A stretch of DNA of 64,000 nucleotides, from IMG/VR virus record IMGVR_UViG_3300045988_183830, positions 65,888 through 129,887 of that record. One strand, written 5' to 3'. Shown piece by piece: positions 44,278-63,897 of this stretch. The notes beneath the pieces were generated by a model, which saw only the letters and a program-made list of their open reading frames with translations, had not been told where the DNA came from and did no database searches. The translations under genes and the position numbers were made by a program. Every line of letters begins with the position of its first letter. Position 1 is the stretch's first letter. Source of the stretch: a virus.

Positions 44278-44530
44278 GGTCTTTTTCTCCTTTCTCCCAG
44301 CCTGTAATAAGGACTTACGGGAATCCAAAAAATGTTATATATAGAAAAAGACAGTCACTTCCCAGAAAAGGGAAGTAACTGTCTTGATTCTTTGTGGTGA
44401 CTTGAAAACGGAGATAATCTCCTTTATAAAAATAGCTTCGTAATTATAATTCTATACTACCACAGTTTGATATTTTGTCAATCGCTTTTGCTGTAAAAAA
44501 AGAAGCTCCCGAAGGAGCTTCTTTTGAAAA
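44278..44530 (-). promoter_or_regulatory. regulatory module copy 1: terminator, promoter, operator palindrome, leader hairpin and RBS
   Basis: - Terminator: gaagctcccgaaggagcttc at 44495-44530.
- Promoter: minus-strand TTGACA (44476-81), 16-nt spacer, TGGTAGTAT (44454-62).
- Palindrome: GGAGATAATCTCC (44410-22).
- Leader hairpin: gacagtcacttccc...gggaagtaactgtc (44350-83).
- RBS region: conserved 40-nt block ...ggacttacgggaa. Confidence 0.6.
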
Positions 44531-44557
44531 AATGTGGTTTGTCTTGAAGCGAAAGAA

Positions 44558-45610
44558 TCAAAGGATTTTTGCTCGGACGGTATAGGTGAACGGAGCGACA
44601 CCATCATCCGAACTCGCATCCCACACTTCATGGATTTCGTCGATGGGTACACCTGCCACACGACGCCAAGCGACGTCATCGGCGAAACCATCAATCATCG
44701 GAATGTCCTCCAGAAGCGCATCAAGCGCACCGTCTTGGCGCAAGTCAATGTACTTCGGATTGAGCATAACTGCTCCCTCAGAGAGCAGCATACGCGCCCA
44801 GAGCTGGTATTCCAGCGACCAACGGGACGTTTCCGTCGGCAGGTCGCCATACAGCTCATCCAGTTTCCGCAGGATGGAAGCGCAAATCACACAACCTTCA
44901 GGATGTCCGTGATGCGTACCGAGATACGGCAGCTTTGCAAAGAACAGAGGATTCCCAGAATACTCATCTTCCGCATAGGCGTAAAACGTCAGCTTCATGT
45001 CAGCCGCCGCGAAGAACCGGTCAGGAAGGATGTCCTTCACTTTGCAGTTGCTCCAGACGACATCATCCGAAAGGAATCTGAAGCCGAGAGGCTCCGTTCT
45101 TTCCGGTGTGAGGTACTTCCACGCCATATGGCGAACGAGGGCAACGAAACCCAGCTCATGCCGCAGCGTCGGCACATCGTCAAAGATTCTGCGGATGTTT
45201 GCCCGCAGCTTCTCTTCGCTTCGTTCCACGCACTCGAAAAAGAGCTTGCAGGACGACCCGTTCGTGAACACAACGCTCAGTGTCACGAGCCAAGGTGCGA
45301 AATCGTCGGGTTTCAGAATGTAATCTTTCTGCCCAGTGCAGGCGACCGGCACAAACCAACCGCCCGCCTTAGCCTCGTTATACGAAGCGTCTGCCGCAGC
45401 ATAGGCGGTTGTTCTGAAGGCATCGTCGGTGTCCTTATCAGGAATATCAATGGCATCGCCCATGCAAATGTACTTGAAGGGGACGTACATTTCCACCTCT
45501 CTGACGCCGTCGCCATCTGCATCATCCGTATCGTGGCAGTAGCGCACGATGTGGACCAGTACGTTCTCGTCGCAGTGCTGCTTTCGCTTGTTTGAAATCG
45601 GATTATTCAT
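44558..45610 (-). CDS. hypothetical protein, paralog of 45624-46661
   Basis: RBS gaaaggagagcaaac. It shares the blocks FAKLP(D/Y)LG and LEYQLWARMLL(A/S)EGAVMLNPK with the adjacent gene. The overlapping plus-strand ORF 44534-45595 is rejected. Confidence 0.65.
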   Translation of the reverse strand: MNNPISNKRKQHCDENVLVHIVRYCHDTDDADGDGVREVEMYVPFKYICMGDAIDIPDKDTDDAFRTTAYAAADASYNEAKAGGWFVPVACTGQKDYILKPDDFAPWLVTLSVVFTNGSSCKLFFECVERSEEKLRANIRRIFDDVPTLRHELGFVALVRHMAWKYLTPERTEPLGFRFLSDDVVWSNCKVKDILPDRFFAAADMKLTFYAYAEDEYSGNPLFFAKLPYLGTHHGHPEGCVICASILRKLDELYGDLPTETSRWSLEYQLWARMLLSEGAVMLNPKYIDLRQDGALDALLEDIPMIDGFADDVAWRRVAGVPIDEIHEVWDASSDDGVAPFTYTVRAKIL

Positions 45611-45623
45611 GTTTGCTCTCCTT

Positions 45624-46661
45624 TCAGCCCGTCACGATGCAGGTAAACGCCTCATCGCCGGACTCACTCATATCATTCTCCCACGCCTCGGAGATTACGC
45701 TGATGGGTGTTTTGACAGCCTTGGCCCACGCAATACCGTCACCGCTGTCTTTCAGCATTTTATTGCCAAAAGCCAGCGTCTTGAATTCGTAGGTGCAATC
45801 GAAGAGGTCGAGGTGCTTCGGATTCAGCATGACCGCACCTTCTGCCAGCAGCATACGAGCCCAGAGCTGATACTCCAGTGCCCATTTTGCTGTGTCTTCA
45901 GGCAGGTCGCCGTACATCTCGTCCAGCTTCTGCAGCAGTTCTGCGATTGCGGCACGTCCCTCAGGCTTATTGTACCGTTCGCCCAAATCGGGCAGCTTGG
46001 CAAAGAACAGGGGGGATGCCGCATACTCGCCGTCGGAATAGGCGAAGAACGTCAGCTCCATGGCAGGGGGATTGAAGAACTTATCAGAGAGAATGTCCTT
46101 CACACCGCACTGGGCGAAGTTTACGCTGTCCGAAATGAGCCGGAAGCCGAACTGCTCCGTCCACTCACGAGTGAGGTCTCTCTTCGCCATGGCCGCAACC
46201 GTGTCAGAATGCCGCCCGCAGGTGTTTTCCGGCGCCACACGCGGCTCGAATCTCGCCCGCATATTGTTGACGATAGCTTCAGTGTCGTTGAGGACACTTT
46301 CGAAAAGCAGCCGGCAGCCGCGCCACGCTCCTTCGTCGGTGACGGAAAGGCTGATGATGTAGGGGGCAAAATCGGCGGGATGGAGAACCATTACCGTCTT
46401 GCCGCCGTCCTCAGTGACCTTCACAGACCAACCGCACTCGTTCCCGTATCGCTCGTTCTTCTTGAACGAAGCATTTGTGAGAACGGAAAAGTGCAGCTCG
46501 TGACCATCGCTGAAGACGCTCACAGAATCGCTCTTGCGGATGTCCTTGAAAGGAACGAAGGTGGTCTCGAATCTGTCGTACTTAGGGTTGTGGCGGTAGA
46601 CCTTAACCAACGTGTTCTCGTTGCAGAAGGATGCAGCGGCTCTGATAGATGTATTACCCAT
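45624..46661 (-). CDS. hypothetical protein, paralog of 44558-45610
   Basis: ATG follows the RBS aaagaaaggagaaaaatt. The ORF-track start at 46787 runs through the upstream RBS. Confidence 0.6.
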   Translation of the reverse strand: MGNTSIRAAASFCNENTLVKVYRHNPKYDRFETTFVPFKDIRKSDSVSVFSDGHELHFSVLTNASFKKNERYGNECGWSVKVTEDGGKTVMVLHPADFAPYIISLSVTDEGAWRGCRLLFESVLNDTEAIVNNMRARFEPRVAPENTCGRHSDTVAAMAKRDLTREWTEQFGFRLISDSVNFAQCGVKDILSDKFFNPPAMELTFFAYSDGEYAASPLFFAKLPDLGERYNKPEGRAAIAELLQKLDEMYGDLPEDTAKWALEYQLWARMLLAEGAVMLNPKHLDLFDCTYEFKTLAFGNKMLKDSGDGIAWAKAVKTPISVISEAWENDMSESGDEAFTCIVTG

Positions 46662-46695
46662 AATTTTTCTCCTTTCTTTTTGAAAAAAAAACAGC

Positions 46696-46914
46696 TCAGA
46701 TTTTGTCGAAATCATCGACGCCCGGAACGAGCGGCAGCGTGCGTCCATTATCCCAACGCATATGAATCTGGCCGTTATCGTCCACATAAGTGACTTTACC
46801 GGTCGTGCCGTCTGCCACAGGAAACTTGCTTTCGTCCATGTGTTTCAGTCTGATTCTTGTGCCTTCGGGATACTCTGTCCTGATGGATGCGATTTCCGCA
46901 GTGCTGTATGCCAT
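46696..46914 (-). CDS. DUF4314-like small protein
   Basis: RBS gaaaggagaatttcaa. The pattern GTRIRL..M.D...PV..GTTGKVTYVDDNGQIHMRWDNGRTLPLVPGVDDF matches my recall of DUF4314, which is common on Firmicutes conjugative elements. The match was not checked against a database. Confidence 0.45.
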   Translation of the reverse strand: MAYSTAEIASIRTEYPEGTRIRLKHMDESKFPVADGTTGKVTYVDDNGQIHMRWDNGRTLPLVPGVDDFDKI

Positions 46915-49351: not shown

Positions 49352-49653
49352 TTCTGCTCACCTCTCTTCTTCATTGCTGCCGCATATGCGGCACCCAGTG
49401 CAAACTCCATGGACGTAATCACCTCGGCGACAGTGGGCGCGGGCTTGCTCAAATCACGGGCATAGCCACGCCGGTCGTTCAGGTGGGTGGTCAGGGTATC
49501 GCGCACCTTACCGCAGACCTCCGGCAGCTCCAGTAGCTTGCTCAGTGCGTCGTTGACCTCACGGGCAGGCATCTTGTTGGAAGGGTTGAACAGCAGCTCG
49601 TTCCGATACGTGGACAGAGTGCAGTCGATGAAATGCAGCGTAGATGTATTCAT
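49348..49653 (-). CDS. hypothetical protein
   Basis: RBS gaaaggagaaattatt. Confidence 0.5.
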   Translation of the reverse strand: MNTSTLHFIDCTLSTYRNELLFNPSNKMPAREVNDALSKLLELPEVCGKVRDTLTTHLNDRRGYARDLSKPAPTVAEVITSMEFALGAAYAAAMKKRGEQK

Positions 49654-49686
49654 AATAATTTCTCCTTTCTTTTGAAGTCGATTGCA

Positions 49687-49869
49687 TCAGCAGCCATCAG
49701 CAGGGTAGGGCGGGATGGTAACGGACAGGTTGTAGATGTGGTTGCCGCAGCGAACACACTCGGCATCCTTGTCCCACAACCCACGTTCCTTCATGCCGCG
49801 CACGCTGCCCGTACAGTGAATGGACGGGTGCGTGTCTCGCTCATGTTTGGTGAGCTTCTTGTACTTCAT
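49687..49869 (-). CDS. small zinc-finger protein (60 aa)
   Basis: RBS aaaggagaaacacc. The Cys/His cluster is HCTG...CVRCGNH. This is the first gene after module copy 2. Confidence 0.45.
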   Translation of the reverse strand: MKYKKLTKHERDTHPSIHCTGSVRGMKERGLWDKDAECVRCGNHIYNLSVTIPPYPADGC

Positions 49870-50092
49870 GGTGTTTCTCCTTTCTTTGTTGTCGAAAAAT
49901 GCAATAAATATATAAAAAAAGACAGCTATCCCTGAAATGGGATAACTGTCTGAATTTACGTATGGTGACTTGGAAAACGGAGATAATCTCCTTTATAAAA
50001 ATAGCTTCGTAATTATAATTCTATACTACCACAGTTTGATATTTTGTCAATGATTCTGTGGGTAAAAAAAAGAAGCCCTTTCGGGCCTCTTT
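49870..50092 (-). promoter_or_regulatory. regulatory module copy 2
   Basis: - Terminator: aagaagccctttcgggcctcttt at 50064-92.
- Promoter: TTGACA (50045-50), 16-nt spacer, TGGTAGTAT (50023-31).
- Palindrome: GGAGATAATCTCC (49979-91).
- Leader hairpin: gacagctatccc...gggataactgtc (49921-50).
- The RBS-proximal block is diverged. Confidence 0.6.
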
Positions 50093-50094
50093 AA

Positions 50095-50316
50095 TTACTT
50101 CTTAGAGCGTTTTTCCATCTTTGCCACGAGTTCAGCAAGCTGCTGCTTTGTCTCGCCTCGGACGATTCCTTCGAAAATCTCCCACGCACCATCCTTGCGC
50201 TTGTAAACTGCGGTCTGTGGAGCTTTCTCCTTACGGGCCGTCTCGACCTCATTTTCAGTGAAATCGGGAGGTGAGCCCGCTATTTTGCACCATGCGCGGA
50301 TATATGGATAATCCAT
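50095..50316 (-). CDS. hypothetical protein (73 aa)
   Basis: ATG follows aaaggaag. The ORF-track start at 50493 overlaps the upstream gene. Confidence 0.4.
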   Translation of the reverse strand: MDYPYIRAWCKIAGSPPDFTENEVETARKEKAPQTAVYKRKDGAWEIFEGIVRGETKQQLAELVAKMEKRSKK

Positions 50317-50318
50317 TC

Positions 50319-51029
50319 TCACAGACTTCCTTTCGGTTTGATTTTCGGCGCATACATATCTTTGCCCTGCTTTTCGTAGAAAAGCGTCTGCGTCTTGTTC
50401 GTCCCATCCGGTCTGATATTCTGATACGAAGGATGCTTTGGAAAAGCTGCCATTAGTTTTCTGAACCGCGCCACCGCCTCTGAAGGCTTGCATTTTGCGG
50501 CCACATAGTAGTTCAACGGACTGGCCTGCCCGAATGTCATAACTTCGGAATGGGGACGCTTCATCATCTCGATGACCTCGTCCGTGAAAGCCCCACGGAT
50601 TGAATCCGGTGTCTTGGTTCCATCCTCGTTGGCATAGGCTTCCAGATTCATCTTATCGAATCGAATGAGAGGGTCGATGATATGCTTGCCATCTACGACG
50701 ATGAAGCTGTGGTGGGTAGGGACGGCATCGCCTACGAAGAGCCAGCCGGCATACGGAACGGCGTTCTTCACGCCTGCGGCAACCAGAGCGTCCAGAATGC
50801 GCTGGGTGTTCTGATAGCAGTAGCCGACATCGACCTCCGTGGCATCGAAGGCCTGTCGAATGGTGTCGGTCTCTACACCTGAGGGAAATGGAAGTGTGTT
50901 GCCGTAGCTAAACACTTCCATTGTCCCCGTCAGCGGATACATCTGTGAAGGTATCTTAATAGGCTTTTCGCTGAATGACGGGTTGATGTAGATAGCATGA
51001 GAGCGTAATACCTCAAGGCTACTTGTCAT
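50319..51029 (-). CDS. hypothetical protein
   Basis: The ORF is long and overlaps the stop codon of the zeta-like gene. Confidence 0.5.
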   Translation of the reverse strand: MTSSLEVLRSHAIYINPSFSEKPIKIPSQMYPLTGTMEVFSYGNTLPFPSGVETDTIRQAFDATEVDVGYCYQNTQRILDALVAAGVKNAVPYAGWLFVGDAVPTHHSFIVVDGKHIIDPLIRFDKMNLEAYANEDGTKTPDSIRGAFTDEVIEMMKRPHSEVMTFGQASPLNYYVAAKCKPSEAVARFRKLMAAFPKHPSYQNIRPDGTNKTQTLFYEKQGKDMYAPKIKPKGSL

Positions 51030-51699
51030 TTCTATCTACGTCCTCCTCAGTCTCAGTAGCACTATTAAGTGAATTACAGAGCTTCTTCTCATAGTCGGAA
51101 AGCAGAAGTTCTCCAACATTATTGCTTTTGATGCCTACGAGGTCACAGATTTCCTGTTTGCTCCAGAAAGCATTTTCCCTGCATTTATAGGTGTCGCCAT
51201 GTGCCTTCTTGAATATTCTATCCGTTGAAGAGCCGGAGTTGTCATAAATATGGCAGATGTCGCATAGGTCAACAAAGGCCTGAACCCTTGCCAAAGACTT
51301 TTCGTACCGAGACCGAATCTTTTCTTCAGGTACGTCGTGGCCTCCAGATTGAACACGTTCCCAAACACGAAGTACGTTTACGGATGCGTCTTTCGTAAGA
51401 ACGAAAAAGCCTTTTATGAAATACCCATGCTCTTTTGCATATTTTAGAAATTCCAGTTTTTTATTCGTGGACAAAACTGTCTCGAAGGTAAAATCTTCGC
51501 CCCATTCTACACACTGTAAGCGCATTGCATCAGCCTTCTGTGCCGCTTCCAAATCGCTGCATCCAGTTTCTTTTTTGATGTCGTCTGCGTTGATATACGG
51601 GGGTAGTATATCTACTCTACTTGTAAGTGAGCTTTTACCTGACCCGTTAGGCCCAGCGAAAACGATAATGCAAGGTTTCCGCTGTTTCTCATTTGACAT
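51019..51699 (-). CDS. zeta-toxin/AAA_33-like P-loop kinase
   Basis: Walker A is IIVFAGPNGSGKSS. ATG follows gggagaatcgagt. The alternative start is 51714. Confidence 0.55.
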   Translation of the reverse strand: MSNEKQRKPCIIVFAGPNGSGKSSLTSRVDILPPYINADDIKKETGCSDLEAAQKADAMRLQCVEWGEDFTFETVLSTNKKLEFLKYAKEHGYFIKGFFVLTKDASVNVLRVWERVQSGGHDVPEEKIRSRYEKSLARVQAFVDLCDICHIYDNSGSSTDRIFKKAHGDTYKCRENAFWSKQEICDLVGIKSNNVGELLLSDYEKKLCNSLNSATETEEDVDRNDK

Positions 51700-51904
51700 A
51701 CTCGATTCTCCCATCCGGATACAGTAAATAGGCACACTTTTTCTCTGCATCATAGCGAGCAACAGGAATACCTTTCATTTTTGCCCGTTGATAGGCTTCA
51801 AAGGCTACCGACGAAATCCGACGGTCCATTTCCGCATCCTCTTCGTCACAGTGAGGGTCTTCATATAGGCAAGTTTTGGATACGCCCTTTACGAATTCTT
51901 CCAT
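51689..51904 (-). CDS. small protein upstream of the zeta-like gene (possible antitoxin partner)
   Basis: RBS aaaggaggatacaact. Its position immediately 5' of the toxin-like gene is the basis for the inference. Confidence 0.4.
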   Translation of the reverse strand: MEEFVKGVSKTCLYEDPHCDEEDAEMDRRISSVAFEAYQRAKMKGIPVARYDAEKKCAYLLYPDGRIEYVK

Positions 51905-52037
51905 AGTTGTATCCTCCTTTCAATTTTCAACTCTATTATAGCCCATTTGTACGCTCTCTGTCAAACAGACTATGTATAGAAAGAGAGGACTGCTGCAAAC
52001 AACAGCCCCCTCCAAGGTTATAAAATCTCCTTTCTGC

Positions 52038-52490
52038 TCAAAATGGCAAACCAAGAGGCACATCTGTCGAAGGCAGAGATGTGTTCTCAACAGTGGCCTT
52101 CTGCTGCATCGCCGCCAGAATGGTGTTCTGTTGCTGCAGCAATGCATTCTGTTGGGCAATGAGAGAATTCTGCTTTGCTATGAGCTGCAGCGCCGAGTTG
52201 TAGAAGGCTCGTGCAGGAACAGAGGAATACGCCGCCTCGTCGGGAATGTCTTTTACCTGCTGGGTCTCAGAAAGGCCCAGCAGATAATCAACAGAGACGT
52301 TGTAAACATCTGCGATTTTTGCGAAGCAATCAATGCTCGGCACGATGCGTCCGCGTAGCCATGTTGCGACAGATTCCGGCGCAACACCGATAATCCTCGC
52401 AGCTTCCGTCACGGAGTCACCGTTGTCTTCCATCAATACCGTGAAGCGTTCGACAAAAGACTTCTTGAGCTTTTCCAGAAAGGCATCCAT
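52038..52490 (-). CDS. XRE-family helix-turn-helix transcriptional regulator with Gln-rich C-terminal coiled-coil
   Basis: ATG follows taagggaggtgcccaca. The HTH is NGDSVTEAARIIGVAPESVATWLRG...IADVYNVSVDYLLG. Confidence 0.65.
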   Translation of the reverse strand: MDAFLEKLKKSFVERFTVLMEDNGDSVTEAARIIGVAPESVATWLRGRIVPSIDCFAKIADVYNVSVDYLLGLSETQQVKDIPDEAAYSSVPARAFYNSALQLIAKQNSLIAQQNALLQQQNTILAAMQQKATVENTSLPSTDVPLGLPF

Positions 52491-52504
52491 TGTGGGCACC
52501 TCCC

Positions 52505-55254: not shown

Positions 55255-55599
55255 TCAAGAACAAGAAAAAATATCACAGAGAACAGAACGCACCTTGGCG
55301 AGAACCTCATCGGGCAGATGGCCGACAACATCGTACTTGTTCGCCATGATGTTGAAATAGCTTACATACTCACACAGGACGGTTCCGCTACGAGGAGGAC
55401 ACGTCTTCTCATCGAGTATAACATGGTATGGGCCGTGCTCAGTTTCGTAGGACAACGGACACACCCAGACGAAATCTGTTACTCCGTGCAGCGTATCGTT
55501 GCTTACAACGAGCAGGGTACTTGTGACACCAAACTTCATCGCGCCGTCGGTGGGGTCGAATTTGGCGATGATGATATCGCCTCTTTTCGGTCTACTCAT
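55255..55599 (-). CDS. PemK/MazF-family toxin-like protein
   Basis: RBS gaggaggg. The segment RGDIIIAKFDPTDG...TLLVVSND...VWVCPLSYE...GPYHVIL fits the MazF/Kid fold pattern. Confidence 0.55.
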   Translation of the reverse strand: MSRPKRGDIIIAKFDPTDGAMKFGVTSTLLVVSNDTLHGVTDFVWVCPLSYETEHGPYHVILDEKTCPPRSGTVLCEYVSYFNIMANKYDVVGHLPDEVLAKVRSVLCDIFSCS

Positions 55600-56830
55600 T
55601 CGAACCCTCCTCGCTGACGAACTGCTCGCGCAGTTCCTTCACGGTTTCGTCGATAGCCTCCTGTGCCAGCACATCAATGCGGGCAATGGCATTGATATAA
55701 TCAATAACCATATCACCTTTCTTGGTCAGGAAAACACGGGCAATGACCTCGCCTTCAGCGTCATCGTCGGGAGTACGCCAGCCATCAATGGAAACGGCGG
55801 TGATAACATCGCCGTAGCCAACGGGAGAATCTTCGCGGAAATCGTGACGGATTTCCGTCCAGTATCCCTGCTTCTCGTCGCTGGGTGCCGGCTCGTCTGT
55901 GATTGTGACCTCGTAGGTGCCGTTGCCGTAGTTGAACCTGCTGGTACACAGCAACAAACGGTCATCATCCATGTTCCAGACGTTGATGCCGTTCGCATCA
56001 TACAGTGCGAGATTCGCAACAACTTTAGCTTCCCTTCGGATAATCTGAAGGACGGCGGTGAAGCCGTTGTCAAACTTGTTGGTATATTCAGCGATAACGA
56101 CATTTGTTGCATAGATGATATTGTTGGGAACATTCTCGCCCTGCATATAGCTGATATACTTCGTTGCGACCACAGCAGGAATTCTGATAGTAGTTGCGTG
56201 GAGCGCCGGTGTGGACGTATCTTTGACGACTTCCATGACATACACATTGTCGCAGTAATCAAAGGTGTAGATGCCCTCCAGCTCGCTTTCAGAAGCCAGA
56301 CACATGACATCAGACATTTCCTCATTCCAGAGGACGGGATTGACATAGAATCCCTTGTCATCAGAGCAAACAGTGACGGTTGCGGTATAGCCATCAGGGA
56401 ACGTCAGGCCGAAGCAACGAACACCGGCATACTTGCCAATACCGGACTCCACAGCGGGAATATGCTCCTCGCCACAAGGCATATCCAGCAGTTCCTGACA
56501 CATTTCGGCATCCTTGGAAGGGACAAGAAGGGTAGCCTTATACCGCGTAGACACGGCAGGCTCATTCTTCTTGAAGCACATCTCAGGATGCTCCTTCAGC
56601 CACGCGGTGATTTTCTCACGGTTCTGCGGCGTGTCAATGTACGTCCAGTCCGGTACGTTGGGCATATCATGGATGATTTTGATACCATCCTTTTCTGCCT
56701 TACGCGCCGCCGCACGGTTTGGGAGGTCGCTCGAATCACTTCTCCGAATGTGCTCCACGTTGGGCACAAAGGGCAGGTCGCTCCCGGTGGGTGTGACACA
56801 GATAACATAACCCTTGTCGTTCTTGTTCAT
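55592..56830 (-). CDS. hypothetical protein (412 aa), overlaps the start of the MazF-like gene by 8 nt
   Basis: ATG follows gaaaggagtatatttt. The ORF-track start is a TTG inside the SD. Confidence 0.55.
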   Translation of the reverse strand: MNKNDKGYVICVTPTGSDLPFVPNVEHIRRSDSSDLPNRAAARKAEKDGIKIIHDMPNVPDWTYIDTPQNREKITAWLKEHPEMCFKKNEPAVSTRYKATLLVPSKDAEMCQELLDMPCGEEHIPAVESGIGKYAGVRCFGLTFPDGYTATVTVCSDDKGFYVNPVLWNEEMSDVMCLASESELEGIYTFDYCDNVYVMEVVKDTSTPALHATTIRIPAVVATKYISYMQGENVPNNIIYATNVVIAEYTNKFDNGFTAVLQIIRREAKVVANLALYDANGINVWNMDDDRLLLCTSRFNYGNGTYEVTITDEPAPSDEKQGYWTEIRHDFREDSPVGYGDVITAVSIDGWRTPDDDAEGEVIARVFLTKKGDMVIDYINAIARIDVLAQEAIDETVKELREQFVSEEGSNE

Positions 56831-56866
56831 AAAATATACTCCTTTCAATTTCGGAAACTCACTTGC

Positions 56867-57772
56867 TTACTCAGGAATGTCGTCAATGTGCAGCACAACG
56901 CCAACGCTGGAAACATATCCCTCATCATCGAGAATGTCGAACTTCCGATGGGGGAGATTGCAGATGACAGACCACGGGCAAACAGAATCGCCAGAGTTGT
57001 CATCGCACCAACGAAACTCGATGTCCGGCTCGCCAGCGGCTGTCTCGTAGAAACCTTGAGCTTTACTCGCAGTCAGCTTGACACCAATAAAGGCGCCGAT
57101 TTCCTGCGTCATAGCGCCCTCGATTTCCACGAGGTCGTCCGATGCGGCATACACCACTACGAGGCCCTTGACGGCCCCCAGAGCCGCAGGAACAACGCTC
57201 CGTTCGTTTCTGTTGTTCAGCTCCGCAGCCCAACGTTCCAGAAACTCGGCATGGGTGACGTCTTTGACCTCCTTGGACTGAGACGCAGCCTCTTTCTCTA
57301 TCAGCTCTTTCAGCTTCGGGCAATGAGCAGCAGGAACAGCCGTACAGAAACCGCCGACAGCGGTACAGTTGAAGTTGTCCTTGTGCATATGCTCACAGTT
57401 GACGCAGTTCGGACGATAGGTAGACTTGAGCACATCCAGCTCATGCCGAAGCGCATAGATGGTCGCATCCGTCTCTCGCATTTTGTCGCTGAGAGCTCCG
57501 ACCAGTTCAGGTACGGAGGCATCGGGGCCGGGGCCAAACCTCTCGCCCAGAATGCGGCGGAGGGTCTCGTTCTCCTGCCTGAGCGTCAGCAGCTCTTCAG
57601 GGTCAAGGAAGGTGTCCTCGAAAGCCGCCAGCCGGTCTTTCAGCCGGTTGCGGCAATAGAGTGTAGAGCACATCTCCTTTACAGCGTCGGATTCGCCCGT
57701 GCGCTCAGACTTACACCGGTTGCAGTCCACACAGGCCTGTCCATCAGGAAGGCGGATGGTGAGTCGTTCCAT
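56867..57772 (-). CDS. hypothetical protein with N-terminal Cys cluster and coiled-coil
   Basis: RBS gagaaaggagactgaaa. The Cys clusters are CVDCNRC...CSTLYC and CVNCEHMHKDNFNC. Confidence 0.5.
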   Translation of the reverse strand: MERLTIRLPDGQACVDCNRCKSERTGESDAVKEMCSTLYCRNRLKDRLAAFEDTFLDPEELLTLRQENETLRRILGERFGPGPDASVPELVGALSDKMRETDATIYALRHELDVLKSTYRPNCVNCEHMHKDNFNCTAVGGFCTAVPAAHCPKLKELIEKEAASQSKEVKDVTHAEFLERWAAELNNRNERSVVPAALGAVKGLVVVYAASDDLVEIEGAMTQEIGAFIGVKLTASKAQGFYETAAGEPDIEFRWCDDNSGDSVCPWSVICNLPHRKFDILDDEGYVSSVGVVLHIDDIPE

Positions 57773-57774
57773 TT

Positions 57775-58437
57775 TCAGTCTCCTTTCTCGTCATTATCAT
57801 TGTCCACGATAAACGCCGTCATAAACTCGATATTGAGGCCTGTGAACGGCGGCATCCTGTTGAGCGTTTCGGACATCGCACGCTCACCGTGCAGCATCTC
57901 CAGAAATTCCTTTGCAGGAATGAACTCCTTATAGCGTTCTTTCTTGGGATACACGATAGAGGTGGACACGGCCACAACGCTCTCGCTGCGGCAGTAGGAC
58001 ACATAACAGCGGCGCTCGAAGTCGTCAAACTCCTGTGCCAACATGACACGGAACGTGACAGGCTTTTCTTCCTCTGTCAGTCGGGTTCTGTCAGAATAGA
58101 TGCGCTGATAGACACCCAGCCGTGTGTCGAACTTTTCAGGACGATAGGTACAGCCGCGCATGGACTCCATACGCTCGACGAACTGGTCGTGATGATACGG
58201 CCAAGAACCCTCGCCCTTTGCGGCCAGCTTGAAGTGCGACTCGTCGATGAACCGGCAGGTGTAGACTTTGGGTTCAGCACGAGGCCCATCGGTAATCAGC
58301 AGTTTCCCGCCATTGGGCAGGGTGAACACGGGATTACCTCGCCGGTCACGGAAGATGATGGTCTTGTCGTAGTCCACGACCAAACTATTCGGCACAATGC
58401 AGTACCGCCCGACAGGTCTGTCAGACTTAAAGGTCAT
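57775..58437 (-). CDS. hypothetical protein
   Basis: RBS gaaaggagaatacatt. Confidence 0.5.
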   Translation of the reverse strand: MTFKSDRPVGRYCIVPNSLVVDYDKTIIFRDRRGNPVFTLPNGGKLLITDGPRAEPKVYTCRFIDESHFKLAAKGEGSWPYHHDQFVERMESMRGCTYRPEKFDTRLGVYQRIYSDRTRLTEEEKPVTFRVMLAQEFDDFERRCYVSYCRSESVVAVSTSIVYPKKERYKEFIPAKEFLEMLHGERAMSETLNRMPPFTGLNIEFMTAFIVDNDNDEKGD

Positions 58438-58499
58438 AATGTATTCTCCTTTCTTTTTTTTCGGGAGAGGGCGGGGAAGTCCCCGCCCTCATTTGGGCC

Positions 58500-59162
58500 T
58501 CAGTAGTCGATGCACTCGTCCATCACGTCCGCTACGGCCTTGATGTCCTCAAAGGTGACATTCTCCGTCACGGGGATGGCGACATACAGTTCCCACTGGC
58601 AGAACGGGGTGTCCGTGTCCTTGGGGAACAGCACATCTGCGTGCAGTTTCCTCAGCTTCTCGTCCGCATTCAGCTTCTCAGCCAGCTTGCGGCCAGAGTC
58701 CATCAGTGCCACGCGGACACCGACATCGCGCTTTCCTTTTTTGCTGGACATCTCCTCGCCGGCCTCTGCGATGACCAGCAAACACGGCTGGCCGTTCACA
58801 GTGGCGATGTAGGTGGGGAAGTTCAGGCTGTCGGTCCAGCAGGTGAAATAACCCCAGCGCAGCAGGGGCGGCACCTTCGTGTACCAGTCCATGTCTTCCA
58901 CAGGAGGCTGATATTCGCCTTTCAGGAAGGCTTCGTACTTCGCCTTATCGTATTCGGCGAGCTTGGTATCGAAGCCGGCGGGGTACAGTCCGGGCACGCC
59001 ACGATAATCGGGAACGTTGATGCTGCACAGGGAAGCGGTGTCGTACCGCCCATCCCAGTCCTTAGGGGGCTTCTTGTCGGGGGTGTTAAACTCCCACACG
59101 AATACCTCCCCGCAGCCGTTGCAGAAAAACTGAGTTTCGTCGATGCTGATGATTTTGAACAT
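58500..59162 (-). CDS. hypothetical protein
   Basis: RBS gaaaggagaaaaaaaca. There is an N-terminal CNGCG motif. Confidence 0.5.
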   Translation of the reverse strand: MFKIISIDETQFFCNGCGEVFVWEFNTPDKKPPKDWDGRYDTASLCSINVPDYRGVPGLYPAGFDTKLAEYDKAKYEAFLKGEYQPPVEDMDWYTKVPPLLRWGYFTCWTDSLNFPTYIATVNGQPCLLVIAEAGEEMSSKKGKRDVGVRVALMDSGRKLAEKLNADEKLRKLHADVLFPKDTDTPFCQWELYVAIPVTENVTFEDIKAVADVMDECIDY

Positions 59163-59190
59163 TGTTTTTTTCTCCTTTCATTTTTTTGAC

Positions 59191-59439
59191 TTACAAATCC
59201 ATGAACGGGCCTTCGACCCGACATTGGTCCCATCTGCGATTGCGCGGCTCGTTGTGCCGCATAGCGTCGAGATAGCTCTGCGCCTGAGCCCTATCGCCGA
59301 AGACGATGGGCTGCACGCCATCATGGTCGATTTTCGACCAGTAATAGGCGTAGCCGGATGCTCTGGGGTCAGCACAAAGCGTATAACCATCGCTATCGCG
59401 GATAACAAACTTCCATGTGAGAACTCGTCCAATACCCAT
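59191..59439 (-). CDS. hypothetical small protein
   Basis: The RBS (gagagg) is weak. Confidence 0.4.
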   Translation of the reverse strand: MGIGRVLTWKFVIRDSDGYTLCADPRASGYAYYWSKIDHDGVQPIVFGDRAQAQSYLDAMRHNEPRNRRWDQCRVEGPFMDL

Positions 59440-59448
59440 AGCAGCCTC

Positions 59449-60033
59449 TCAATCCGCCGCAGACTCGCGGTAGACCAACACGTCGTGGCCGGCGTAAATA
59501 GCCTGCAGCTCGTCCTTGGTGATGCTCAGGCTGCTGAACAGCCAATCGTCGGCATCCTTCCAGTCGGAGAACTTGGGGCCGATTTCCTTCCGGAACAGCT
59601 CCAGCGTCTCAAACAGGAGGTCCTTGGCACGGGGGGAGAGGTCTTCCTCAGGGTCAGGTGCGGGCATCTTGAAGTCGTTGCAGTCGTTGATATCTACCTC
59701 ATCCGTGGAAGTCTCGTAGTCCTTCCAGAGATGGGCATTGTCCTCGAACCGCTTGACGATTTCGGCGATGGCGATGTCGGTCGTCGGCTTATCCGTGGTC
59801 TCCTCAAAGTAGCAAAACTCAAAGAAGGGATGGTCGGCCTCCGTCTCACTGCCGAAACGCTCGTCGTTCAGACCGAGAGGACCGGGGATGAAGTATTCGC
59901 CGGCATCGAGACTGGCGATAATACGCATCTTTTCTTCCTCCGACATCTGGCCGGCGAAAACGACCTCATGATGGACTTTGTAGTTGTCCGCATCACGATA
60001 GAGATAGGCGAGTCGGGTGTTGATGACACTCAT
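59449..60033 (-). CDS. highly acidic hypothetical protein (194 aa)
   Basis: Module RBS gggagaaaggagaaaaaca. D+E content is about 25%. This is the first gene after module copy 4. Confidence 0.55.
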   Translation of the reverse strand: MSVINTRLAYLYRDADNYKVHHEVVFAGQMSEEEKMRIIASLDAGEYFIPGPLGLNDERFGSETEADHPFFEFCYFEETTDKPTTDIAIAEIVKRFEDNAHLWKDYETSTDEVDINDCNDFKMPAPDPEEDLSPRAKDLLFETLELFRKEIGPKFSDWKDADDWLFSSLSITKDELQAIYAGHDVLVYRESAAD

Positions 60034-60280
60034 TGTTTTTCTCCTTTCTCCCTGCCTGTAATAAGGACTTACGGGAACTCAAAATGTATGAAAATATATA
60101 AAAAAGACAGCTACCCCAAGATTGGGATAACTGTCTGAATTTACGTATGGTGACTTGGAAAACGGAGATAATCTCCTTTATAAAAATTAGCTTCGTAATT
60201 ATAATTCTATACTACCACAGTTTGATATTTTGTCAATCGTTTTAGTCGAAAAGAAAAGCGCCCCGTCAGGGACGCTTTTC
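60034..60280 (-). promoter_or_regulatory. regulatory module copy 4
   Basis: - Terminator: aaagcgccccgtcagggacgctttt at 60255-80.
- Promoter: TTGACA (60231-36), 16-nt spacer, TGGTAGTAT (60209-17).
- Palindrome: GGAGATAATCTCC (60164-76).
- Leader hairpin: gacagctacccc...gggataactgtc (60106-35).
- RBS region: conserved block ...ggacttacgggaa. Confidence 0.6.
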
Positions 60281-60305
60281 GCAGTAGATGATTCTCCTTT
60301 CACAA

Positions 60306-62318
60306 TTAACGCGCTTCAAACAGCTTCTCAATGTCGAAATCCTTGATGATGTACTCATCAGGATTTGCAACGACTGCATCATACTCCTCACGGCTCTGGA
60401 AACTGTCGATGACTTTCTTCTCGGCGCTACTCAACGCATCATACGGCTTGGTGCCATAGTCAGCAGGCAGCCAACCGCGATTCATTCCGACGAAGATATT
60501 GAGCCGGTCGATGAGCCGCTTGGCAGAGCTCTTGAACTTCAACTTCATTGTTCCGTTCTTGTAGAAGGAACCAGTGAAGAATGTGAAGGTAATGCTTTTG
60601 CCAATGCTCTTTCCGCAAATGGCGTTGTCCGTTACAGCACTCATCGGGTCGATAGCCTTGGATGCTTCTTTTCCTCCGTTGAGCAGGTAAAGGGCGCACT
60701 CAATGTCATGCACTACGTGTGCGGCTTTATCCTGGTTGAAGTCGTCTCTATAGCGGTCGAAGACGTAGGAATACATAGAGAGCTTCGGGAACGCCAAACG
60801 GAACCCAGCGGTCTGTTTCTTGTCGAAAGAGCAATATTTCTGGGTGTTCTCACTTGATAGCGCGTCCGCATCGTAATCGTACACATCATACCGTTGCCTA
60901 CTTCCCATGCTCCCCAGCCTATCGAACAGGTTCAGCAGGGAAGTGGTGCAACCTCTACGCAGCTCCCGCCGAATATCCTCCATTACAGTCCTCACAGTGT
61001 AGTCGTTGAGGTCGTAATCCTTCAATTCAGCGCGACGACGCTTGTAGTCTTCTTCCATGTTGGCAGGCATCAGACCGATGTTCGCGGCTTTGTGGATGAA
61101 AGTGTCCCAGTACCTTGAGCGAACGCCTTCCAAGCACGCCATTCGAAGTTCAACGCCGGAGTCCCTCCAAGGATGGTCGTCCACAGCCAGTTTGACATAG
61201 GGCTGGTCGTAACACTCAGAGCCTCTCATTATAAAGGGCTTAACCTCTTCGTAGGAGCTAATGAAGGAGTTGCAAATACGAGCCTTGAGCTTAAACTCCT
61301 CAATGATGTCCTGCGGAAACTTCTTCCGCCAGTCGGATAGGAACGGCTTGACCGTCTCATAGTCCTTCAGGTCGCAGATGCTCTCGCTCAGAATATCCGC
61401 CTCGTTCCGACTGTCTCTGCGCGTAGGCTTAATGTTGGCGTAAATGATAGCCCACTCAGGAGCCGTCCGCTTCGCCCTATCGCGCTTAAACGCCTTCTCC
61501 ACGAGAAAGACAGAAGAGTCCGTCTTTTTCAGTATGAAGGACAGGCTCGCATCTACAGCCAGTGTAGAGTAGGGAACAATGGCAAGAAGCTGACCGCCGT
61601 ATTTCTGCAGCATGGTTACAGCCTTACCAATCCATCGCGCAGCGAAAGCAGGGGAAACCGCTGCTGTGTGGGCGAACATAATGAGAGGGTAGGGCTTCAA
61701 CGTGTCGAACTTCGAGAAATCGTCATAAACGACACGGATGCCTTCTTCCCGCAGTGTCTCCGCCACACCAACGTCCTCGACCACAGTGTCCAAATAGTTT
61801 TCGCCTTGGTAAGCTCTCTCGTGCTGCCAAACCTTGTTGGTGTTCCTGTAACAGCCGGCAAAGCGGCGGAAGCATTCATGGAGCTGAAGCTCGCTCATGT
61901 CGCCGCAGATTGGGTTCAGGATGTCTCCGCCGCGCACGAGGGACCAGTCCACCATGCGAAACGCCTTACCACAGACGTAGGGGGTAAGGGCCTCAGGTGT
62001 GGTTGCGTACCGCCGCCTGACTTTAGGGGCGGATACCTTGTAAGTGTCTACGCCCTTGCTCTCGAACCATTCTCTGAATTTCTCCTTTGCCCCTGCAAGG
62101 TTGGCTGACGTACTTCCATAGATGTGCGTGGTTCGCGTCCAGTAGTCATTGAGGCAATCACCAAAGTATCCATAGGCCTCATAGGTTCCGTTACCGCCTC
62201 GGATGATATCGGGGTCCTTGCAAATACACCCGACGTTCTTGCCCTTGTAGTAGATATCAACTACCGTTCTTCCGGCATCCTTTCCGGGGGCAACAAATGA
62301 AAGCTGCGCTCTGCTCAT
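60306..62318 (-). CDS. hypothetical protein (670 aa)
   Basis: ATG follows the module-type RBS gggagaaaggagaaaaact. No motif is recognised. Confidence 0.6.
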   Translation of the reverse strand: MSRAQLSFVAPGKDAGRTVVDIYYKGKNVGCICKDPDIIRGGNGTYEAYGYFGDCLNDYWTRTTHIYGSTSANLAGAKEKFREWFESKGVDTYKVSAPKVRRRYATTPEALTPYVCGKAFRMVDWSLVRGGDILNPICGDMSELQLHECFRRFAGCYRNTNKVWQHERAYQGENYLDTVVEDVGVAETLREEGIRVVYDDFSKFDTLKPYPLIMFAHTAAVSPAFAARWIGKAVTMLQKYGGQLLAIVPYSTLAVDASLSFILKKTDSSVFLVEKAFKRDRAKRTAPEWAIIYANIKPTRRDSRNEADILSESICDLKDYETVKPFLSDWRKKFPQDIIEEFKLKARICNSFISSYEEVKPFIMRGSECYDQPYVKLAVDDHPWRDSGVELRMACLEGVRSRYWDTFIHKAANIGLMPANMEEDYKRRRAELKDYDLNDYTVRTVMEDIRRELRRGCTTSLLNLFDRLGSMGSRQRYDVYDYDADALSSENTQKYCSFDKKQTAGFRLAFPKLSMYSYVFDRYRDDFNQDKAAHVVHDIECALYLLNGGKEASKAIDPMSAVTDNAICGKSIGKSITFTFFTGSFYKNGTMKLKFKSSAKRLIDRLNIFVGMNRGWLPADYGTKPYDALSSAEKKVIDSFQSREEYDAVVANPDEYIIKDFDIEKLFEAR

Positions 62319-62372
62319 AGTTTTTCTCCTTTCTCCCTGCCTTGAAGGACTTACGGGAAATAAAATGTATTT
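62319..62372 (-). promoter_or_regulatory. partial module (copy 5): only the RBS-proximal conserved leader block, no promoter or hairpin
   Basis: tctcctttctccctgccttgaaggacttacgggaaataaaatgtat matches the proximal part of copies 1, 3, 4 and 6 and then diverges into the upstream gene. Confidence 0.5.
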
Positions 62373-62606
62373 TTACTGATGAAGTGGGCTGATAGGGCAT
62401 TGGATGGAAATAATGACCACCAATGCCAGCCCGCTGCCAAAGATAATGATGAGTGCAAGGTAGGCCAGAAAACTGCCGGTACGTCCCTTAAACTTTTCGC
62501 CGATGAAAGCGACGTGATGAAGGCCGAGCCACAACGAGCCGACCAGCAGGAACGCCACAAACAGCATCACACCAACACCTCTGACAGCGCCTAAGAATGT
62601 CTGCAT
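62373..62606 (-). CDS. small membrane protein (2 TM)
   Basis: The ORF is hydrophobic and has the RBS agaaaggagaatacc. Confidence 0.5.
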   Translation of the reverse strand: MQTFLGAVRGVGVMLFVAFLLVGSLWLGLHHVAFIGEKFKGRTGSFLAYLALIIIFGSGLALVVIISIQCPISPLHQ

Positions 62607-62620
62607 GGGTATTCTCCTTT

Positions 62621-63652
62621 CTATTGATTTCTGCGTTCCGCAGCAATCACGGCCAAAACGTTTTCTAACCGCTGCTTGCTCACCTTACCGGCCATTGGAC
62701 CGTCCTCATCCACACACCGTACCACGAATGGGTAGGTATGGGCCTTTGGCTGGATACCGATGATGATGAAGTCATGTCCATCAAACGAGTACATCTCACG
62801 GTAAGAGATGTCGATACCATAGCGTTCAAGTCGATACCGGATATACTCTTTGTTGCGGTAGAATGCGGCTTCTTCGTCCTTGGCATTTTCTAAGGCCAGA
62901 GCATCCTTGTCTGTGCATTGCAGCTCGTAGCAAATCTGCTCCATCTCCTCACGGGGAATGAGGATTTCCTTGCCAGTAGAGACTTCGCCGATTCGCTTTC
63001 CAACAACGTACTTCCACGGACGGTACTTGTAGACACCAACGAGTTCGTACTCATATCGTCCCTTCTTGAAGGTGATGCCGAAATCGTTCGGATTCAGCAA
63101 ACGTTTTGGCGGAACGTCCCGTGGCAAAGTCGCACAGTGAGCACAGTAGGCATCCCACTCGATTTTCTCGGTCGGAACTTGCGCTTCGTCATGGAATACC
63201 GTGCGGTAAAATCTGCACTCAAACAGATTGATGAGAACATTTCGCCTGATTGTTTTGTCCTCCAGCTCCGCATCGAAGAGTTTCGAACTCCGTTCCACAA
63301 CGGTTGCCCTTACGCCGAACTGTGCTGCCACACGCTGCACAGCAGGAAGCATATCCTGACGAATAAGCTCGCGGGACACGTCTGAATCGTAATTCGTATC
63401 CATCACAATACGGATACCAATACCGATGATGTAGCTGCCACTTTTCTGAATGTAGCCACAGTTATGGCGCTTGATGCCGAAGCGTTCTGCGCCGAAAGGG
63501 TCGTAGCCGCAGTTGGCATTGCCTTTCAGTGCTTCCTCCACAGCATCCATCAGCTTGTCACGAATCTGTCTGTCCATGTCGGTATCAAATGGTACGGCCA
63601 GACTAATATCGCTCCATCTGCCGGGTGTGCCGTTGAGAGATTTCACATCCAT
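62621..63652 (-). CDS. hypothetical protein (343 aa)
   Basis: ATG follows the module RBS gggagaaaggagaaaaac. The ORF-track N-terminus is translated leader. Confidence 0.55.
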   Translation of the reverse strand: MDVKSLNGTPGRWSDISLAVPFDTDMDRQIRDKLMDAVEEALKGNANCGYDPFGAERFGIKRHNCGYIQKSGSYIIGIGIRIVMDTNYDSDVSRELIRQDMLPAVQRVAAQFGVRATVVERSSKLFDAELEDKTIRRNVLINLFECRFYRTVFHDEAQVPTEKIEWDAYCAHCATLPRDVPPKRLLNPNDFGITFKKGRYEYELVGVYKYRPWKYVVGKRIGEVSTGKEILIPREEMEQICYELQCTDKDALALENAKDEEAAFYRNKEYIRYRLERYGIDISYREMYSFDGHDFIIIGIQPKAHTYPFVVRCVDEDGPMAGKVSKQRLENVLAVIAAERRNQ

Positions 63653-63897
63653 GTTTTTCTCCTTTCTCCCTGCCTGTAAAGAGGACTTATGGGAACATAT
63701 AATGTATAAAAATATATAAAAAAAGACAGCCACCCCAAGATTGGGATAACTGTCTGAATTCATGTGGTGACTTGAAAACGGAGATAATCTCCTTTATAAA
63801 AATAGCTTCGTAATTATAATTCTATACTACCACAAACAGATACTTTGTCAATGAATTTAGCACGAAAAAAAAGAAGCTCCCGAAGGAGCTTCTTTCA
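63653..63897 (-). promoter_or_regulatory. regulatory module copy 6
   Basis: - Terminator: gaagctcccgaaggagcttc at 63866-97.
- Promoter: TTGACA (63846-51), 16-nt spacer of different sequence, TGGTAGTAT (63824-32).
- Palindrome: GGAGATAATCTCC (63780-92).
- Leader hairpin: gacagccacccc...gggataactgtc (63725-54).
- RBS region: conserved block ...ggacttatgggaa. Confidence 0.6.

Follow-up and report, generated by a model that had tools for sequence, protein, structure and literature searches.

The DNA analysed here is a stretch of 64,000 nucleotides (nt) from IMG/VR record IMGVR_UViG_3300045988_183830 (positions 65,888 to 129,887), referred to below as the window. Between 44 and 64 kb, the minus-strand genes form successive operons, each headed by a copy of an AT-rich cassette of ~250 bp. 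Read on the minus strand, the cassette includes, in order, an operon-end terminator, a predicted sigma-A promoter, a TATAATTACGAAG box, a GGAG/CUCC hairpin (hairpin 1), an AGUCAC box, a further terminator located in the leader, and a RUAAG hairpin (hairpin 3) that abuts the Shine-Dalgarno (SD) sequence. The best explanation is that each cassette controls one operon of a ~175-kb conjugative plasmid carried by human-gut Firmicutes. An earlier note on this DNA had reported five full copies and one partial copy, all on the minus strand, and had taken them for a dispersed, co-oriented regulatory unit of phage type at the head of successive operons. The copies were found where it had placed them, far above the number expected by chance from shuffled sequences. 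A dispersed regulatory unit is supported, and the interpretation as a whole is supported in part. The parts of each copy are listed below, with promoters, start sites and terminators as predicted from the sequence.

63869-63896, minus strand: cassette 5, operon-end terminator of the upstream operon, a GC-rich hairpin and T-run
63824-63851, minus strand: cassette 5, promoter TTGACA-16 nt-(TGG)TAGTAT with its own spacer sequence, the length being kept
63806-63818, minus strand: cassette 5, TATAATTACGAAG box around the predicted start site, a -10-like element
63766-63792, minus strand: cassette 5, hairpin 1 (GGAGA-UUA-UCUCC, 63780-63792), then GUUUU and the box CAAGUCACC (63766-63774)
63716-63754, minus strand: cassette 5, leader terminator, stem 63725-63754 (-19.3 kcal/mol) and U-tract 63716-63724
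63650-63695, minus strand: cassette 5, hairpin 3 (UUCCC-AUAAG-inner stem-GGGAG), SD sequence AAAGGAGAAA and ATG (63650-63652)
62314-62371, minus strand: partial copy, hairpin 3 and SD sequence only, between a gene for 77 amino acids (aa) and a DUF4942 gene, within an operon
60253-60280, minus strand: cassette 4, operon-end terminator of the upstream operon
60209-60236, minus strand: cassette 4, promoter TTGACA-16-(TGG)TAGTAT
60149-60203, minus strand: cassette 4, TATAATTACGAAG box (60191-60203), hairpin 1 (60164-60176) and CAAGUCACC box (60149-60157)
60098-60135, minus strand: cassette 4, leader terminator, stem 60106-60135 and U-tract 60098-60105
60031-60077, minus strand: cassette 4, hairpin 3, SD sequence and ATG (60031-60033)
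55222-55247, minus strand: cassette 3, operon-end terminator (A-run, hairpin, T-run; looks bidirectional)
55179-55206, minus strand: cassette 3, promoter TTGACA-16-(TGG)TAGTAT
55121-55173, minus strand: cassette 3, TATAATTACGAAG box (55161-55173), hairpin 1 (55135-55147) and CAAGUCACC box (55121-55129)
55070-55108, minus strand: cassette 3, leader terminator, stem 55079-55108 and U-tract 55070-55078
55006-55048, minus strand: cassette 3, hairpin 3 (short-loop form), SD sequence and GTG (55006-55008)
50069-50092, minus strand: cassette 2, operon-end terminator of the upstream operon
50023-50050, minus strand: cassette 2, promoter TTGACA-16-(TGG)TAGTAT
49964-50017, minus strand: cassette 2, TATAATTACGAAG box, hairpin 1 (49979-49991) and CAAGUCACC box
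49912-49950, minus strand: cassette 2, leader terminator, stem 49921-49950 and U-tract 49912-49920
49867-49883, minus strand: cassette 2, SD sequence AAAGGAGAAA and ATG, without hairpin 3
44498-44525, minus strand: cassette 1, operon-end terminator of the upstream operon
44454-44481, minus strand: cassette 1, promoter TTGACA-16-(TGG)TAGTAT
44396-44448, minus strand: cassette 1, TATAATTACGAAG box, hairpin 1 (44410-44422) and CAAGUCACC box
44343-44383, minus strand: cassette 1, leader terminator with another upper stem (CACUUCCC/GGGAAGUG), 16 pairs, -24.2 kcal/mol, U-tract 44343-44349
44275-44323, minus strand: cassette 1, hairpin 3, SD sequence and ATG (44275-44277) of the AAA-ATPase/CobT-VWA operon

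The 13-mer GGAGATAATCTCC occurs in five exact copies in the window, at 44410, 49979, 55135, 60164 and 63780, and with up to two mismatches gave 15 matches against 1.37 expected from shuffles. The 28-nt promoter TTGACAAAATATCAAACTGTGGTAGTAT is present in four exact copies (0 expected), and a repeat search returned a 127-nt family of five copies with spacings of 5569, 5156, 5030 and 3615 nt. Start codons of the first genes are at 44277, 49869, 55008 (GTG), 60033 and 63652. A conserved block of 40 nt before the ribosome-binding site (RBS), as described earlier, was recovered in four of the five full copies; the copy at 49.9 kb holds AAAGGAGAAA only. In the partial copy (62314-62371, minus strand), the RBS-proximal block alone is present.

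The cassette is found in many related elements. More than 200 copies were detected on related human-gut contigs of 110-220 kb, and nhmmer gave 201 full copies, 124 of them distinct, in the window and 169 further loci. Pattern scans of IMG/VR revealed contigs of 181-192 kb that each carry at least 13 co-oriented copies spread over ~90 kb, and a metagenome scan brought in 35 further loci, on contigs of up to 134 kb; human-gut assemblies were the source of nearly all of them, the one non-gut match being due to chance. Positions 49449-64000 of the window are 100% identical to a 174,496-bp ENA contig, k141_110154 of ERZ27274281, in which the window corresponds to positions 70642-134641, and positions 50167-64000 match a 174,547-bp JGI contig at 100%. 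In blastn searches, a cassette had no match among sequenced phages or among the 72,556 plasmids of PLSDB, the promoter-plus-box pattern gave 0 matches in 185,579 species genomes, and a text search of the literature for the cassette motifs gave no relevant result.

Every copy lies between genes, shares their orientation and ends at a start codon, and the copies keep their synteny between diverged plasmids. A second clade has a variant cassette, again in many copies. Variants are plasmid-specific and shared among the copies of one plasmid, from which the copy at the transfer operon differs. This diverged cassette heads the transfer operon and immediately adjoins the replication region; it has the hairpin GGAGC-AUAA/AGAA-GCUCC, its own terminator stem and its own hairpin-3 stem. 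Accessory-type cassettes thus number at least 13 per plasmid, alongside one of the transfer type, all on the same strand. Promoter-only relatives (TTGACAAAATATCCAATTTTGGTAGGGT), which lack the leader and terminator, were also seen in the transfer region (L054:6718-6771 and L210:20306-20358), before TrbC-like genes and after the coupling-protein gene.

The promoter consists of TTGACA, a spacer of 16 nt and TG-G-TAGTAT, with the TG extension at -15/-14. As had been noticed before, the last copy (63824-63851) has a different spacer sequence of equal length and retains TTGACA, 16 nt and TGGTAGTAT. Among the 124 distinct copies the -35 hexamer, the 16-nt length of the spacer and TGG-TAGTAT are kept, and the spacer sequence differs between clades. 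Retention of the hexamers and spacer length with drift of the spacer sequence is the signature of a working promoter under selection, and activity as a sigma-A extended -10 promoter is predicted. A consensus scan of 44-64 kb found no other promoter-like sites between the leader terminator and the start codon. A Frpo-like single-strand promoter was considered and rejected, as no long inverted repeat spans the -35 and -10 elements.

The TATAATTACGAAG box includes a perfect -10-like hexamer (TATAAT) at approximately -1 to +5 of the predicted start. Nearly every copy has it, whatever the clade and even among the most diverged, and four loci carry TATAATCACGAAG in its place. Each clade-1 cassette also has a promoter-like site on the plus strand, TTTATA-16/17-TATAAT, formed via the palindromic AATTATAATT:

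44423-44450, plus strand: promoter-like site in cassette 1
49992-50019, plus strand: promoter-like site in cassette 2
55148-55175, plus strand: promoter-like site in cassette 3
60177-60205, plus strand: promoter-like site in cassette 4
63793-63820, plus strand: promoter-like site in cassette 5

Read from this site, the sequence runs back across the main promoter and into the apparently bidirectional operon-end terminator, and an antisense RNA of ~70 nt is conceivable. The site may be incidental, because its -35 element is not kept in diverged cassettes.

Upstream of its terminator the leader is ~65 nt long and includes an A/U-rich spacer followed at ~+26 by hairpin 1, GGAGA-UUA-UCUCC. A linear box, GUUUU(C)CAAGUCACC, i.e. 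GUUUU(C)AAGUCAC, follows. The sequence of hairpin 1 had been described as a perfect palindrome ~25 nt past the start and proposed as a DNA operator. An inverted repeat is indeed present at ~+26, but it has a 6+1+6 arrangement and its reverse complement differs at the centre base. Moreover, it varies in the way of an RNA hairpin. GGAG/CUCC alone is fixed, the fifth pair being A-U, C-G or G.U with some mismatches; the loop may be UUA, UUUA, AUAA, AGAA or AAAA; and the arms are 5 or 6 nt apart, both spacings being found within one plasmid (L001). Changes of the G.U type (GGAGG..AUCUCC and GGAGA..AUCUCU) break the DNA palindrome and preserve pairing in the RNA. Thus, hairpin 1 fits a small RNA hairpin modestly better than a DNA operator that binds a dimer.

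The next hairpin, recognised earlier as an RNA structure of the sense transcript, is confirmed as such. However, it has 13-16 pairs and is directly followed by T5-T8 and ATATAT, features of an intrinsic terminator that had been overlooked. In all five full copies of the window the stem of 13-16 bp (-19 to -24 kcal/mol) is followed by U5-U8, and the hairpin with its U-tract is also kept in 59 distinct homologues. In a consensus scan of 44-64 kb the five leader hairpins took the first five places among terminator-like sites, above the operon-end terminators. For comparison, typical B. subtilis terminators have stems of 9+/-2 bp (PMC10325885). The leader terminator lies at approximately +70 to +100 and is separated from the CAAGUCACC box by 8-12 variable nt, so that a terminated RNA of ~100 nt is predicted. 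A hairpin directly followed by a U-run places an intrinsic terminator, with predicted release of the transcript, inside the 5' leader, and the unit would therefore be a promoter-attenuator and not only a promoter-operator-leader.

The terminator hairpin is the sole conserved fold of the 59 distinct leaders. Double compensatory changes were observed in 8 of its 14 pairs, which confirms and much extends the compensatory changes first seen between copies in the window. Pairing holds in 95.5% of the alignment cells and falls to 41-55% if the partners are shifted by 1-3 columns, and the observed covariation score was reached by 0 of 500 shuffles. The most diverged copies (loci L054 and L056) have the stem wholly replaced (GAGACCAUCAUC/GAUGAUGGUCUC) and retain the hairpin and U-run. 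As the earlier note had pointed out, G-U wobbles pair in the minus-sense RNA alone; read on the opposite strand, these abundant pairs would turn into A-C mismatches, which indicates a structure of the sense RNA. Both the promoter spacer length and the pairing of the hairpins are conserved among the homologues.

The GC-rich hairpin upstream of the promoter, with a stem specific to each copy and a T-run, is predicted to close the preceding operon. Since such an operon-end terminator precedes each cassette, the downstream genes would depend on read-through of the leader terminator. The 5' arm of the leader terminator was also seen to include TTATCCC (55093-55099 and the equivalent positions in other clade-1 copies), which is the heptamer of the Reg operator of Bacillus plasmid p576. 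It is present singly, with an imperfect inverted partner, is not kept in clade 2, and is probably a coincidence.

Hairpin 3 is located ~20 nt past the terminator. Its outer stem (UUCCC/GGGAG) encloses an internal loop, RUAAG, on the 5' side and a short inner stem-loop, and the 3' arm of the hairpin abuts the SD sequence AAAGGAGAAA. Covariation among the homologues is clear, with five mutually complementary outer stems around the invariant RUAAG: UUCCC/GGGAG, GGACA/UGUCC, UGAGC/GCUCA, GUGC/GCAC and GUCUU/AAGAC. The partial copy at 62.3 kb indicates that this module can act alone inside an operon. Hairpin 3 probably sets translation, or the stability or processing of the mRNA. A formal analogue is found in the start-associated sequences (SAS and ESAS) of mycobacteriophages, of which SAS lies at the RBS and the ESAS hairpin just upstream, in many co-oriented copies at gene starts; the sequences and hosts differ from those of the cassette. 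Rfam gave no family at the gathering score for any part of the cassette, the whole window yielding one tRNA only, and at permissive E-values one cassette gave only sub-threshold matches driven by the terminator hairpins.

The phage-type context proposed for the cassette was not borne out. On related contigs of 113-118 kb a homologue of the primase whose gene adjoins the diverged cassette lies between two gene blocks. One block includes genes for a TQ adhesin, ParB, ParA and two RepL-like proteins, and the other includes genes for two TrbC/VirB2 pilins, a large membrane protein, a CHAP/lysozyme hydrolase and the coupling protein of a type IV secretion system. The presence of RepL, ParAB, TrbC and a coupling protein in the relatives points to a conjugative plasmid, which makes the 'viral' label of IMG/VR misleading. 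A phage was rejected as an identity, plasmid genes being found instead and no head, tail or terminase families being found by Pfam in 140 clusters of open reading frames (ORFs). From its gene content the element is thus assigned as a conjugative plasmid. IMG/VR contigs UViG_3300045988_183936, 3300029310_000398, 3300030040_000294 and others, up to 192 kb long, are likewise catalogued as viral and are likely misclassified conjugative plasmids.

Our preferred reading, to which we assign a probability of about 0.5, is that the cassettes form a plasmid-wide promoter-attenuator regulon gated by a trans-acting antitermination factor. Host sigma-A RNA polymerase would start at the near-consensus extended -10 promoter (TTGACA-16 nt-TGnTAGTAT) and transcribe the largely unstructured leader of ~65 nt, with TATAATTACGAAG, the 4-5-bp GGAG/CUCC hairpin and GUUUU(C)AAGUCAC as conserved signals. 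It would then meet the long-stem terminator, where by default most transcripts would end as an RNA of ~100 nt, and entry into the operon of ~3.5-5.6 kb would need read-through. Read-through would be granted by one trans-acting factor that recognises the leader (box TATAATTACGAAG, hairpin 1 and box CAAGUCACC). The factor, plasmid-encoded or possibly host-encoded, would act in the manner of N/nut, LoaP or Q antitermination. The accessory operons, at least 13 in number, would thereby switch together, so that about half of the plasmid could come under a single factor; the diverged cassette with its other hairpin and terminator stem would head the transfer operon. The plasmid-specific variants shared between copies, together with the differing transfer-operon copy, fit specificity for a trans-acting factor.

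Other forms of attenuation were considered. RNAalifold identified no conserved structure upstream of the terminator and hence no conserved antiterminator fold, which makes a riboswitch-type switch unlikely and calls for a factor; a riboswitch or other alternative-fold attenuator was set aside on this ground. Leader-peptide attenuation was rejected because no start codon follows the SD-like AAAGGAG, so that no leader peptide is possible, and because the frame is not kept between clades. On inspection, the AGUCACC box could pair with the 3' arm of the terminator in some copies, but without covariation, and this pairing was rejected.

Several points weigh against gating by an antitermination factor. 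The start site, termination and read-through are all predictions. Pfam gave no NusG or Q match among the 25 families listed of 46, and phmmer with NusG and RfaH of E. coli gave no match at E<=1 among all ORFs of 1.79 Mb, which cover part of the plasmid; both are weak tests. In pLS20, stems of >=14 bp resisted conAn antitermination (PMC10325885), and the hairpins of the cassette may accordingly be hard stops that are not regulated. Near-identity of the core could owe much to gene conversion rather than to binding of a factor. Finally, a default-off attenuator alone would not account for the pattern expected of establishment genes, which are on in a naive recipient and off thereafter.

A more ambitious version of the antitermination reading, put forward here tentatively and with some doubt, is a two-layer global control, over ~100 kb of a conjugative megaplasmid of the gut, that jointly comprises an antitermination regulon of a new type, a transfer specificity and a RUAAG operator. 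In it, a single RNA-binding factor would read, in each of at least 13 leaders, the GGAG/CUCC hairpin together with the boxes on either side, which would represent a nut-like site multiplied more than sixfold over lambda, and would license the polymerase past long-stem terminators that are otherwise proof against antitermination. A second specificity, GGAGC-AUAA-GCUCC, would serve the transfer operon, and the RUAAG hairpin would be a separate distributed operator of translation or processing.

A constitutive attenuator or insulator, in which a strong promoter and a leaky terminator give a fixed low output and isolate the operon without a dedicated factor, is unlikely. The conserved leader would then serve promoter escape, stability of the mRNA 5' end (through the SD-like AAAGGAG, cf. 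STAB-SD) or processing. Consistent with this, terminators flank the promoter on both sides, hairpin 1 holds a perfect AAAGGAG with no start codon after it, and the Pfam and phmmer searches, weak as they are, found no regulator. EGeRS1 of pLS20 likewise blocks read-through in one orientation (PMC8708921). However, ~100 nearly invariant nt, including TATAATTACGAAG and the AGUCAC box, in more than 200 copies from several clades are beyond what damping needs, and a stem of 13-16 bp with U7 is expected to terminate strongly, so that a near-consensus promoter would be wasted.

Control at the level of DNA is rather improbable. Here, a plasmid repressor bound to the GGAG-N5/6-CTCC palindrome and/or the TATAATTACGAAG box would shut all promoters, with zygotic induction after transfer (cf. 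p576 Reg and phage stoperators), and the terminator would be secondary; such control may coexist with attenuation. The inverted repeat at ~+26, the box overlapping the start site and the helix-turn-helix (HTH) proteins encoded in the window would suit a repressor, and the establishment promoters of p576 are regulated in this manner (PMC8708921). Against it stand the variation of hairpin 1 described above, namely the arm distance of 5 or 6 bp within plasmid L001, the G.U-type changes that spoil the DNA palindrome and the freely varying loop, and the absence of the Reg dual heptamer.

It is very unlikely that the promoter-to-terminator units are genes for a ~100-nt trans-acting small RNA (a decoy or antisense RNA) in at least 13 copies, with expression of the operons as a by-product. 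The unit does comprise a complete promoter and terminator, and the core is extremely conserved. However, no conserved structure is present besides the 5-bp hairpin and the terminator, there is no Rfam relative, every copy directly precedes an operon and has a conserved, co-oriented RBS module, and the downstream genes have no other promoter in the consensus scan. A selfish repeat without a regulatory role, such as a miniature inverted-repeat transposable element (MITE), insertion sequence (IS) remnant or recombination scar, has in its favour the many copies of similar size, but it is already contradicted and can be practically discounted: no terminal inverted repeats flank the unit, the inverted repeats being internal hairpins only, the flanks are syntenic genes, the copies are intergenic, gene-co-oriented and end at the start codon, and conservation is element by element with covariation.

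Among known systems, EGeRS1 and EGeRS2 (establishment gene regulatory sequences) are conserved sequences of plasmids of the pLS20 family, repeated ahead of four or five operons whose genes are variable and for the most part unknown (Val-Calvo et al. 2021, PMC8708921). EGeRS2 of Bacillus p576 includes a strong sigma-A promoter, occurs in 4 copies with 50-68% identity, one of which drives the repressor gene reg, and is controlled by the ribbon-helix-helix repressor Reg at TTATCCCnnTTATCCC operators that flank the promoter (PMC8708921). The cassette is similar in being a repeated sequence with a strong sigma-A promoter that precedes operons of a Gram-positive conjugative plasmid and defines a regulon. 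It differs in its at least 13 copies, nearly identical core of ~100 nt, leader terminator and lack of Reg operators, for which only chance-like matches to TTATCCCnnTTATCCC with 3 mismatches were found in the cassette. Membership in EGeRS2 was rejected, as the operators are absent and blastn gave no similarity (>60% identity was not reached). EGeRS1 of pLS20 is 420-750 bp long and GC-rich, has many inverted repeats and no constitutive promoter, and blocks upstream transcription in one orientation (PMC8708921). It resembles the cassette in being repeated before 4-5 establishment operons directly ahead of the RBS and in blocking incoming transcription, whereas the cassette is AT-rich, has a length of ~250 bp and includes one canonical terminator and a clearly recognisable promoter; size, base composition and promoter are all contrary to membership. 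EGeRS1 and EGeRS2 are therefore the closest known analogues, yet the cassette has the defining features of neither and joins a strong promoter with a block to read-through, both as predicted.

The architecture also resembles that of phage lambda (pL/pR-nut-tL1/tR1 with N, and PR'-tR' with Q), in which a strong promoter and short leader are followed by a terminator to be overridden before a long operon. Like nut, the cassette has a small 5-bp leader hairpin beside a linear box, and the TATAAT at its start site is reminiscent of the sigma-dependent pause element on which Q relies at PR'. In contrast, lambda has two or three sites per phage and the cassette at least 13, on a plasmid in a Gram-positive host, and the resemblance is one of architecture only. 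A lambda-type boxA consensus (CGCUCUUA-like) is absent from the cassette, and neither an N or Q homologue nor a Q-binding element was identified, N-like proteins being unrecognisable by homology. In Firmicutes, LoaP, a NusG paralogue, is a specialised elongation factor that binds a small leader RNA hairpin upstream of intrinsic terminators, a hairpin that the small hairpin and linear box of the cassette also recall; unlike the dispersed cassette set, it serves one gene cluster. Stoperators of mycobacteriophages are formal analogues of the dispersed motif, but they are asymmetric DNA sites for the phage repressor without a promoter or terminator module.

Processive leader antitermination in Gram-positive conjugative elements is represented by conAn of pLS20 and canT of Tn916 (PMC8191782, PMC11658703). 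Both are long RNAs that act in cis and occur in single copy; the conAn2 RNA is 260-600 nt long and acts with ConAn1, once per element (PMC8191782, PMC11658703). The diverged cassette takes the position of conAn, heading the transfer operon. However, the leader of the cassette is 65 nt long, copies number at least 13 and the terminator is immediately downstream; a leader of ~65 nt with at least 13 repeats is contrary to a single long RNA, and membership in conAn was rejected.

The cassette, itself not described before, appears to belong to the known dispersed, regulon-defining control sequences of conjugative plasmids, here combined with transcription attenuation. To our knowledge, large conjugative plasmids of gut Firmicutes are almost unstudied. 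Most genes in the cassette operons have no known function, and one recognisable cassette marks out a regulon that comprises at least 13 operons as well as the transfer operon, the same logic by which the establishment regulons of pLS20 and p576 were revealed. The cassette is thus a handle for finding co-switched genes, likely with establishment, anti-defence and DNA-handling functions, and reporter screens on it could reveal the regulator. It is also a compact natural test case for passage of polymerase through terminators with very long stems, and its modular parts (promoter, attenuator and RBS hairpin) could serve expression engineering in Clostridia.

Pfam analysis of the 140 ORF clusters from cassette-strand operons revealed toxin-antitoxin pairs (RelB and MazE antitoxins occur in these operons), DUF4942, DUF3846, RRXRR, the YhcG and YqaJ nucleases, the RecD2 and RecG helicases, CobT-VWA and YopX, and most clusters had no Pfam match. 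A repeated sequence heads several variable accessory operons on a conjugative plasmid, which is the pattern of an establishment regulon, and the gene content resembles that of the multi-operon establishment regulons of the pLS20 family (PMC8708921). Plus-strand genes of the window encode two giant TQ-ester/thioester/SpaA adhesins, a nuclease, flotillin, tRNA-Ser and a type IA topoisomerase with Topoisom_bac and Toprim domains. The two giant proteins include thioester domains, SpaA domains and 18 and 5 stretches, respectively, that match the T-Q ester-bond domain, and are probably mating adhesins of the plasmid. The topoisomerase and NS-endonuclease genes share another promoter, ACTTGACATTTTTTTA...TG.TA.A.T, 79% identical over 34 nt, and the other replichore may have a promoter class of its own. 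The plus-strand features are:

80-10915, plus strand: giant surface protein of 3611 aa
12672-18365, plus strand: giant surface protein of 1897 aa
22433-22466, plus strand: first copy of the shared promoter
30407-30440, plus strand: second copy of the shared promoter
32780-32868, plus strand: tRNA-Ser, anticodon TGA

Gene orientation converges and the cumulative GC skew peaks at ~35000-36600, which fits genes co-directional with replication and suggests a replication terminus there, with the genes of both arms co-directional.

Within a cassette operon, a perfect consensus promoter (TTGACA-18-TATAAT, 12/12) was found at 51935-51964 on the minus strand, just past the XRE gene (52038-52499) and before a 71-aa gene and a zeta-toxin gene. 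The XRE protein had been suggested as the regulator of the cassette; nothing links it to the cassette, and its gene lies just upstream of this zeta-toxin unit, which with its own promoter is probably an autonomous toxin-antitoxin module. Another cassette operon includes neighbouring paralogous genes for proteins of 350 and 387 aa without a Pfam match (44558-45610 and 45624-46787, minus strand). Their DNA repeats are 1063 nt apart and 72-75% identical, which represents a tandem duplication inside the operon.

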